From Escherichia coli (GTDB taxonomy: Bacteria; Pseudomonadota; Gammaproteobacteria; Enterobacterales; Enterobacteriaceae), in the NCBI RefSeq assembly GCF_003334355.1, contig NZ_QOWP01000015.1: 64,000 nt of DNA; one strand, written 5' to 3'. The position numbers and the translations under genes were made by a program. Positions 6,461-49,022 of the stretch are shown here, in pieces. Each line of letters begins with the position of its first letter. The first letter of the stretch is position 1. Under the pieces are notes generated by a model that was not told the origin of the DNA, did not search any database, and was given only the letters and a program-made list of their open reading frames with translations.

Positions 6461-7633
<1,173 letters not shown>

Positions 7634-7636
7634 CCA

Positions 7637-7822
7637 CTTGCCGGATGCGGCGTGAACGCCTTATCCGGTCTACAGATCCGGCACCAATGTAGGCCTGATA
7701 AGACGCGCCAGCGTCGCATCAGGCATCGTGCACCAATTGCCGGATGCGACGTAAACGCCTTATCCGGCCTACGGTTCGGACTATTTGTAGGCACGATAAG
7801 ACGCGACAGCGTCGCATCGGGC
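7637..7822. repeat. BIME / cluster of REP elements downstream of fadA
   Basis: Several alternating-orientation copies of the REP core (gccggatgcggcgtgaacgccttatccggcctac and its complement) with spacers. Confidence 0.8.
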
Positions 7823-7884
7823 ATGGTTTGCCAGATACGTCATAGATCTAAATGCCACTGAATAAAGTTTTAGTTGCCGTTCTT

Positions 7885-45957: not shown

Positions 45958-47145
45958 ATGACGGAACAAGAAAAAACCTCCGCCGTGGTTGAAGAGACCA
46001 GGGAGGCCGTGGACACCACGTCACAACCTGTCGCAACAGAAAAAAAGAGTAAGAACAATACCGCATTGATTCTCAGCGCGGTGGCTATCGCTATTGCTCT
46101 GGCGGCGGGCGTCGGTTTGTATGGCTGGGGTAAACAACAGGCCGTCAATCAGACCGCCACCAGCGATGCCCTGGCTAACCAACTGACGGCATTGCAAAAA
46201 GCCCAGGAGAGCCAAAAAGCCGAGCTGGAAGGCATTATTAAGCAACAAGCTGCACAACTTAAGCAGGCGAATCGTCAGCAAGAAACGCTGGCAAAACAGT
46301 TGGATGAAGTCCAACAAAAGGTCGCCACCATTTCCGGCAGCGATGCTAAAACCTGGCTGCTGGCTCAGGCCGATTTTCTGGTGAAACTCGCCGGACGGAA
46401 GCTGTGGAGCGATCAGGACGTCACGACCGCTGCAGCGTTGCTGAAAAGTGCAGACGCCAGCCTGGCGGATATGAATGACCCGAGTCTGATTACCGTTCGT
46501 CGGGCAATTACCGATGATATCGCCAGCCTTTCTGCAGTATCGCAGGTGGATTATGACGGCATCATCCTTAAGCTTAATCAGCTTTCAAATCAGGTAGATA
46601 ACCTGCGTCTGGCCGATAATGACAGCGATGGTTCGCCGATGGATTCAGACGGTGAAGAGCTTTCCAGTTCCATCAGCGAATGGCGTATCAATCTGCAAAA
46701 AAGCTGGCAGAACTTTATGGACAACTTCATTACGATTCGCCGTCGTGATGACACCGCCGTACCGCTGTTAGCGCCAAATCAGGATATCTATCTGCGCGAA
46801 AATATTCGCTCTCGCCTGCTGGTCGCAGCACAAGCTGTACCGCGTCACCAGGAAGAGACTTATCGCCAGGCGCTGGAGAACGTCTCCACCTGGGTACGTG
46901 CTTACTACGATACTGATGATGCCACCACCAAAGCGTTCCTCGACGAGGTGGACCAGTTAAGCCAGCAAAATATCTCGATGGATCTTCCGGAAACCCTGCA
47001 AAGCCAGGCGATGCTGGAAAAACTGATGCAGACTCGCGTGCGTAACCTGCTGGCACAACCGGCAGCAGGGACAACGGAAGCTAAACCTGCACCTGCACCT
47101 GCACCGCAAGGTGATACTCCGGCAGCCGCGCCGCAAGGAGAATAA
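45958..47145 (+). CDS. hemX: HemX membrane protein (annotated uroporphyrinogen-III C-methyltransferase homolog)
   Basis: 395-aa ORF: N-terminal TM segment, Gln/Ala-rich coiled coil, Pro/Ala-rich C-terminus; AGGAAG RBS. Confidence 0.9.
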
Positions 47146-47147
47146 CC

Positions 47148-48344
47148 ATGCTAAAAGTGTTATTACTCTTTGTTTTGCTGATTGCGGGGATAGTGGTTGG
47201 CCCGATGATTGCCGGTCATCAGGGTTATGTGCTGATCCAAACCGACAACTACAATATCGAAACCAGCGTCACGGGCCTGGCGATCATATTGATTCTGGCG
47301 ATGGTAGTGCTGTTTGCCATTGAGTGGCTACTGCGGCGGATCTTCCGCACTGGCGCGCACACCCGTGGGTGGTTTGTCGGGCGTAAGCGTCGCCGTGCAC
47401 GTAAGCAGACCGAACAGGCGCTGCTGAAACTGGCGGAAGGCGATTATCAGCAAGTTGAAAAGCTGATGGCGAAAAATGCCGATCACGCTGAACAACCGGT
47501 GGTGAACTATCTACTGGCTGCCGAAGCCGCGCAACAACGTGGTGATGAAGCGCGCGCCAACCAACATCTGGAACGCGCAGCGGAGCTGGCCGGCAATGAC
47601 ACCATTCCGGTAGAAATCACCCGTGTACGTCTGCAACTGGCCCGTAATGAAAACCATGCTGCACGCCACGGCGTGGATAAGCTGCTGGAAGTTACGCCAC
47701 GCCATCCGGAAGTATTACGTCTGGCGGAACAGGCGTATATCCGCACAGGTGCATGGAGTTCTCTGCTGGATATCATCCCATCAATGGCGAAAGCCCATGT
47801 TGGTGATGAAGAACATCGTGCAATGCTGGAACAACAGGCATGGATTGGCCTGATGGATCAGGCGCGTGCCGATAACGGTAGTGAAGGTTTGCGTAACTGG
47901 TGGAAAAACCAAAGCCGGAAAACGCGTCATCAGGTAGCGTTGCAGGTGGCAATGGCGGAACATCTTATTGAATGTGACGATCATGATACTGCCCAGCAAA
48001 TTATCATCGATGGCCTGAAACGCCAGTACGACGATCGCCTACTGCTGCCGATTCCTCGACTGAAAACCAACAATCCGGAACAGCTGGAAAAAGTGCTGCG
48101 CCAGCAGATCAAAAACGTCGGCGATCGCCCGCTGTTGTGGAGCACACTGGGCCAGTCACTGATGAAGCACGGAGAATGGCAGGAAGCATCGCTCGCCTTC
48201 CGCGCAGCGCTGAAACAACGTCCGGACGCCTACGATTACGCATGGCTTGCCGACGCGCTGGACAGACTGCACAAGCCGGAAGAAGCTGCAGCGATGCGTC
48301 ACGACGGTTTGATGTTAACGTTGCAGAACAACCCACCACAGTAG
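47148..48344 (+). CDS. hemY: HemY protein (TPR-containing inner membrane protein)
   Basis: 398-aa ORF; AAGGAG RBS; last gene of hemCDXY. Confidence 0.93.
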   Translation: MLKVLLLFVLLIAGIVVGPMIAGHQGYVLIQTDNYNIETSVTGLAIILILAMVVLFAIEWLLRRIFRTGAHTRGWFVGRKRRRARKQTEQALLKLAEGDYQQVEKLMAKNADHAEQPVVNYLLAAEAAQQRGDEARANQHLERAAELAGNDTIPVEITRVRLQLARNENHAARHGVDKLLEVTPRHPEVLRLAEQAYIRTGAWSSLLDIIPSMAKAHVGDEEHRAMLEQQAWIGLMDQARADNGSEGLRNWWKNQSRKTRHQVALQVAMAEHLIECDDHDTAQQIIIDGLKRQYDDRLLLPIPRLKTNNPEQLEKVLRQQIKNVGDRPLLWSTLGQSLMKHGEWQEASLAFRAALKQRPDAYDYAWLADALDRLHKPEEAAAMRHDGLMLTLQNNPPQ

Positions 48345-48598: not shown

Positions 48599-49022
48599 TC
48601 GTTTATTATGCCACAGAGAATCGGGAAATAACATCCCTTAACACTTGTTATGAGATAATTCTGTAATCCTCTTTGCTTCCTGAGTAATAACTTCCTGAGT
48701 GAATATTTAACCTGAGCTTGATCCTACACATACTTATTATGAATGATAAAATTCATTCAATTAATAACACATATATTAATTGCCGTTAAAACTAAAAACA
48801 GCATCAATAATCAACGCGATATAATAAACCTGCCTTACATATCAACTGCGCCAGAGGTAGGATTGAAAACGCTCTCCTGATTTTCCAATTCATTTTCTGG
48901 ATAAATAAATAATTTATTTTTGTCACTATTATTTATGTAATCATCCTGTCAGGGAGAGGGATCTCAATTATCAATGCTTAATTACGTCATCATTTTGATG
49001 ACATGAAACCGGAGCATTTTGC

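Follow-up and report, generated by a model that had tools for sequence, protein, structure and literature searches.

The closest described counterparts of the repeat analysed here are two markers used in the MLVA typing of E. coli. CVN014 belongs to the generic E. coli MLVA (the seven-locus scheme of Lindstedt et al. 2007; GECM-7, GECM-10). Its primers and its 6-bp unit are given in Table 1 of PMC8143711, together with an offset of 111, so that the repeat number is (size - 111)/6. CVN014 has been reported as the most polymorphic locus in its scheme. In non-O157 STEC it has 9 alleles in the range 4-15, with a Nei index of 0.83 (PMC3519732); it shows the largest variation among Swedish ESBL isolates (PMC5217547), and it spans 2 to 11 repeats in ST131 (PMC3407997). 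EHC-1 belongs to the EHEC MLVA of Izumiya et al. 2010 (the Japanese scheme, for EHEC O157, O26 and O111), and its primers are listed in S5 Table of PMC10062581. In O157, EHC-1 repeat numbers of about 4-13 are on record (PMC10062581 among the sources).

The window, by which we mean the whole 64-kb stretch of DNA that was analysed, carries a repeat of this kind in the chromosomal region cyaA-hemCDXY-aslB of E. coli. The region matches strain 720632 (NZ_CP025842.1) without a difference over 10 kb, and the locus is annotated as hemX in the matching RefSeq genomes (all among the matches listed). The repeat, CCTGCACCTGCACCTGCA, is a perfect array of three CCTGCA units, after which the sequence continues with CCG CAA GGT (Table 1). 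Tandem Repeats Finder places the array at 47085-47105 with a period of 6, 3.5 copies and 100% matches, and thus agrees with the direct reading of the sequence and with the original prediction of three perfect copies, followed by CCG, near the end of hemX. The prediction had also assigned the repeat to the C-terminus of HemX. The array is indeed in frame and close to the C-terminus, but 13 codons separate it from the hemX stop codon. Each unit, CCT GCA, consists of two codons and encodes Pro-Ala.

Table 1. Features in and around the hemX array (window coordinates)
Feature	Position	Strand	Remarks
hemX CDS	45958..47145	+	395 aa plus stop; array in frame
EHC-1 forward primer site GTGCGTAACCTGCTGGCACA	47038..47057	+	exact match
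Low-complexity Pro/Ala-rich HemX C-terminal tail	47047..47142	+	residues 364-395, contains the array; beyond the Pfam domain end at 363; from comparison across Enterobacteriaceae
CVN014 primer site GCAGCRGGGACAACGGAAGC	47062..47081	+	exact match, unique in window; 4 nt upstream of array
(CCTGCA)x3 tandem hexanucleotide array	47086..47103	+	encodes (Pro-Ala)3, HemX residues 377-382
EHC-1 reverse primer site CGCGGCTGCCGGAGTATC	47113..47130	-	exact match
hemY Shine-Dalgarno GGAG	47137..47140	+	34 nt downstream of array
hemY CDS	47148..48344	+	starts 2 nt past the hemX stop; array 44 nt upstream of the hemY start codon
CVN014 primer site TCCCCGCAATCAGCAAMACAAAGA, within hemY	47167..47190	-	exact match, unique in window

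The 18-mer of the array has a single occurrence in the 64-kb window and was absent from all 100 shuffled sequences. The array is also the only perfect tandem hexamer of at least three copies in the window, and 200 dinucleotide-preserving shuffles gave none at all. Three other repeats were seen in the window. An imperfect tandem duplication at 7633-7824 (98-bp period, 1.9 copies, 84% matches), the units of which contain GCCGGATGCG...CTTATCCGGCCTAC motifs, looks like a REP/BIME intergenic element. The other two lie downstream of hemY: at 48676-48705 a near-tandem repeat of the 15-bp unit CTTCCTGAGTGAATAA (1.9 copies), and at 48901 a perfect (ATAA)x3.

The identity of the array with the typing markers was established by mapping primer sequences from MLVA papers onto the window. 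Because both primer pairs match exactly on either side of the array, and because the predicted CVN014 amplicon (47062-47190, 129 bp = 111 + 3x6) fits the published formula with n = 3, the array is CVN014 of the generic E. coli MLVA and EHC-1 of the EHEC MLVA. O157-19 was considered as the matching O157 locus and rejected, its primers being unrelated in sequence; EHC-1 matches instead. A literature search combining hemX with VNTR, tandem repeat or MLVA returned nothing on the locus, the sole mention of hemX being an unrelated Salmonella SNP. Among the papers found, neither hemX as the host gene nor the Pro-Ala dipeptide is named for CVN014.

The locus was matched in all of 5,426 complete E. coli genomes by megablast with 301 bp around the array. 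Among the matches listed, the matched spans step by 6 bp, and they always lie under hemX/hemY. Unit numbers were counted in two systematic 'spread' samples of 60 genomes each, drawn from the same 5,426 genomes. They were derived from the match spans, and 15 of the 120 sampled rows were verified against the sequence, as were four further loci (L013-L016) against the spans of a 10-kb search. Because a further 9-bp deletion lies upstream of the array in L008 and L020, the unit numbers of these two loci were read directly from the sequence. In total the 5,426 genomes contain 5,430 matching places, of which one is on a plasmid, so that a few genomes carry a second copy of the hemX-hemY junction.

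In the two samples together, 21 genomes have 2 units and 5 have 3 units, two of these five being the forced top hit, one record that is present in both samples. Four units are found in 7 genomes, 5 units in 18, 6 in 17, 7 in 11, 8 in 10, 9 in 5 and 10 in 9. Arrays of 11 and 12 units occur in 3 genomes each and arrays of 13 units in 4, while 14, 15, 16, 17, 18 and 23 units are represented by 1 genome each, and 1 genome has an interrupted array. The 119 sampled genomes thus have 18 allele lengths, between 2 and 23 units. Arrays of 2 units and of 5-7 units are the dominant alleles in the samples, and the 3-unit allele of the window is uncommon (about 3-4% of sampled genomes). All K-12-labelled records in the samples have 2 units. 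This agrees with MG1655, in which hemX has 1182 nt (393 aa) and two CCTGCA units; the original prediction had put the K-12 protein at two residues, or one repeat unit, less than HemX of the window, and this was correct.

The hemX 3' ends of 17 other E. coli loci were read (L001-L009 and L013-L020). In 16 of them hemX is intact and the CCTGCA array is perfect, with 2, 4, 4, 7, 8, 8, 8, 9, 10, 10, 12, 13, 13, 16, 16 and 23 units. The comparison of hemX 3' ends that had been proposed for checking the prediction therefore finds pure arrays of 2-23 units, and the observation that would have spoken against it, exactly three units in all strains, is clearly contradicted by the same range of unit numbers in the samples. 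The exception among the 17 loci, L019, has an array broken by the 4-nt unit CCGC.

Several individual sequences deserve separate description. In L019 (NZ_CM172810.1, strain FCI5) the array reads (CCTGCA)5-CCGC-(CCTGCA)2, with 2 nt lost within one unit; hemX is annotated as 'frameshifted', and the translation ends in ...PAPAPPCTCTAS before the stop. This irregular array may be a real frameshift allele or an error of long-read assembly. L008 and L020 (strains 2020CK-00188 and MFDS1019527) represent a divergent hemX lineage in which 9 bp immediately before the array are deleted (protein sequence AQPAAEAK). The deletion takes out most of the CVN014 primer site at 47062-47081, and in this lineage amplification of CVN014 might fail or give a wrong size. 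A metagenome protein from ENA (P0001, 485 aa) is 100% identical to HemX of the window over 96% of its length. Some 90 aa of its C-terminal part are duplicated internally, and a Thr breaks up its array (APAPAPTPAPAPAP). P0001 is known from one contig only and may be a misassembly.

The array changes length even between closely related strains. Among the nearest matches listed, 10-kb haplotypes that are 99.6-100% identical to the window still vary in span from 6 to 78 bp. Four such haplotypes were aligned to the window for SNP lists. A single position in 10 kb separates the lists of L014 (10 units) and L015 (16 units), and the window (3 units) and L013 (8 units) are 13 SNPs apart. Three O157:H7 genomes share an identical flank of 500 bp (250 bp on each side) and have 13, 4 and 7 units. 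Since near-identical haplotypes differ in this way, unit number changes much faster than its surroundings, and does so recurrently on different backgrounds.

It could be argued that the length differences are artefacts of sequencing or assembly at a low-complexity site, or that they reflect only the horizontal import of alleles. Repeats can be collapsed by short-read assemblers, and one sampled record, L019, combines an irregular array with a 'frameshifted' annotation that may be due to long-read error. The genome collection, however, consists of complete-level assemblies only, and the arrays, at up to 138 bp, are below the typical read length. Moreover, the same range of repeat numbers (2-15 or more) has been obtained by PCR fragment sizing in many independent studies. 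Import, for its part, cannot explain differences of 3-9 units between haplotypes that are separated by 1 SNP in 10 kb or that have identical flanks. Artefact or import as the whole explanation is therefore hardly credible, although some of the length differences between strains could have arrived by recombination. The differences in HemX length between strains, from 393 aa to at least 435 aa, are explained by the array rather than by errors.

These observations are best accommodated if the array is a slippage-prone variable-number tandem repeat of hemX, tolerated and in frame, the one already known as CVN014/EHC-1, a reading that we hold with high confidence. By combining the population data it is possible to outline how such a repeat would evolve. 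It is most likely by replication slippage (slipped-strand mispairing) that the perfect CCTGCA arrays gain or lose whole 6-bp units. As the unit equals two codons, a whole-unit change always stays in frame, and each such change would lengthen or shorten the (Pro-Ala)n stretch in the low-complexity tail of HemX. The resulting variation would be tolerated, would probably be near-neutral, and would accumulate faster than point mutations; because of this tolerance and pace the locus works as a strain-typing marker. Slippage is proposed because the arrays are pure (16 of 17 loci), the alleles differ by whole units and the changes, of 3-9 units, occur on identical or near-identical haplotypes, a combination that a slippage-driven repeat would be expected to display. 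As judged from population data, it is the likely mutational process. The dominance of 2 units and of 5-7 units could represent a mutational equilibrium or could be due to selection.

The propensity to slip may depend on the length of the array. The repeat unit contains the palindrome TGCA, and single-stranded DNA with 10 units is predicted to fold into a hairpin of TGCA stems with an energy of -11.3 kcal/mol (z = -4.4). The predicted fold of the opposite strand has -13.7 kcal/mol (z = -3.0). For 3 units the prediction is a mere -1.4 kcal/mol (z = -0.8). According to these predictions, then, a structure capable of stabilising a slipped strand would form in long arrays only and not in the 3-unit allele. 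Because the hairpin is predicted only for long arrays and the K-12 records uniformly have 2 units, short alleles such as that of the window would seem to be comparatively stable. The threshold for frequent slippage may lie close to three units or higher, and alleles longer than the 3-unit one are probably much more mutable. The dependence of VNTR mutation on copy number, to the extent that PMC5183578 relates it from Vogler et al. 2006, fits such a stability of short alleles. The original prediction had described the repeat as a slippage hotspot that changes length in frame. The in-frame variation in 6-bp steps (2-23 units) supports this description, but the term hotspot suits the locus better than it suits the 3-unit allele.

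The position of the array, a perfect short repeat in an operon whose reading frames adjoin each other, 44 nt ahead of the hemY start codon, invites comparison with contingency (phase-variation) loci, in which case the repeat number would switch or modulate hemX or a translationally coupled downstream hemY. Changes by whole 6-bp units, however, always preserve the frame, and of the 17 arrays read, 16 are whole-unit variants with an intact hemX. The sole frameshifted allele, L019, owes its state to the 4-nt CCGC and not to the gain or loss of whole units, and may be due to faulty assembly. A scan of 46700-47300 for sigma-70-like promoters and for terminators found none. In addition, the hemY Shine-Dalgarno sequence and AUG keep the same predicted unpaired probability over the range 1-23 units. 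With a two-codon unit, no promoter-like site in that interval and an unchanged predicted accessibility of hemY, the array was rejected as a phase-variable contingency locus. Frame switching as its role is largely refuted, and control of hemX or hemY by repeat number in general is very improbable.

A separate feature was seen in the folding predictions for the hemX-hemY junction. In the segment 47104-47165, whatever the array length, the predictions pair the hemY GGAG (47137-47140) with CUCC (47117-47120). Compared with shuffled sequences this hairpin is not significant (z = -1.5); within that limit, the predicted pairing would fit a translational coupling of hemY to hemX.

HemX is annotated as 'uroporphyrinogen-III C-methyltransferase', which to our knowledge is a historical label rather than a demonstrated activity; Pfam words the activity as 'putative'. 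The Pfam HemX domain, PF04375, covers residues 130-363 (E = 3.7e-108, model positions 2-235 of 236), and the repeat residues 377-382 are outside it. A search of the PDB found no solved structure of a relative. An AlphaFold2 model from a shallow alignment of 21 sequences is poor (mean pLDDT 44). Its last helix spans residues 343-365 and is followed by coil, which weakly suggests that the tail beyond residue 365 is without secondary structure. Among Escherichia, Citrobacter and Salmonella the Pro/Ala composition of the tail is kept, while its sequence and length vary.

The homologous site of other Enterobacteriaceae has expanded in some cases. At the homologous codons, the hemX 3' end of C. gillenii (L010) has (GCA CCT)x5, the same hexamer, and that of C. 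sedlakii (L011) has three copies of the 9-bp unit GCACCTGCC. Database proteins of C. sedlakii of 394, 397 and 400 aa correspond to 1, 2 and 3 of these units. Salmonella (L012) has a single CCT GCC and no repeat at this site. The Citrobacter repeats are independent of the E. coli array and lie at homologous codons, so that repeats have expanded recurrently in this tail within the Enterobacteriaceae. The recurrence is a small addition to the typing literature.

The parallel expansions raise the question of whether the length of the tail is itself under selection. In a Mic60-like protein anchored in the membrane, the (Pro-Ala)n stretch might act as a semi-rigid spacer whose length would serve as a tuning knob, different lineages or niches favouring different lengths. 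HemX has been described as a distant Mic60 homologue without a mitofilin domain (bioRxiv 10.1101/2022.06.14.496148), and deletion of hemX is viable and reduces sensitivity to gentamicin (PMC12282077). The kept Pro/Ala composition, the independent expansions at the same site, the frequency of alleles of 5-7 units and the rarity of very long ones point in the same direction. Close strains and members of a single serotype, however, have very different lengths, as expected of near-neutral drift, and a unimodal mid-range distribution is also predicted by length-dependent slippage alone; a similar directional mutability has been reported for Salmonella VNTRs (PMC5183578). Tail length has no linked phenotype, and the tail is outside the conserved domain. 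Selection on tail length is for these reasons quite unlikely. At least as doubtful is the more specific idea that (Pro-Ala)n serves a Mic60-like protein of the inner membrane as an extended spacer, so that its length is functionally relevant and the array lets lineages tune it. If it were true, the parallel Citrobacter expansions would represent selection for an adjustable tail and not a shared mutational accident. The hemX array is probably a tolerated, near-neutral length polymorphism.

Placing the marker in hemX, where it encodes Pro-Ala dipeptides in a tail beyond the conserved domain, makes it probable that the variation recorded by MLVA is harmless. CVN014 and EHC-1 alleles can be read directly from genome sequence. 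As a discovery this matters little, as typing with the locus dates from 2007 (CVN014) and 2010 (EHC-1).

The array shares its presumed mutational process with several known systems. The contingency loci of Haemophilus and Neisseria also rely on slipped-strand mispairing at a perfect short tandem repeat. In these loci, either the unit length is not divisible by 3 or the repeat is positioned in a promoter, and changes in repeat number switch expression on and off; the hemX array, in contrast, has a two-codon unit at the 3' end of a gene, and no switching would result. A closer parallel is found in the in-frame VNTRs of Salmonella MLVA, such as STTR5 in yohM, which is likewise a 6-bp repeat inside a gene, varies by single units and is used for typing (PMC5183578). 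Mid-range alleles predominate in STTR5 and slippage is its accepted mechanism, as is proposed here (PMC5183578). STTR5 belongs to another gene and another species and is located between two protein domains, whereas the hemX array is in a C-terminal tail.

The closest match remains that with the E. coli markers themselves. CVN014 has the same 6-bp unit, and there is no difference at the level of the locus. EHC-1 is the same locus again and differs from CVN014 only in primer positions and amplicon size. The high polymorphism published for CVN014 agrees with the variation across the sampled genomes, where diversity is about 0.89 as compared with the published 0.83 (PMC3519732). Likewise, the EHC-1 range of about 4-13 in O157 agrees with the 4, 7 and 13 units of the O157:H7 genomes described above. 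The locus is thus already known, and the window simply carries a short, uncommon 3-unit allele of it.
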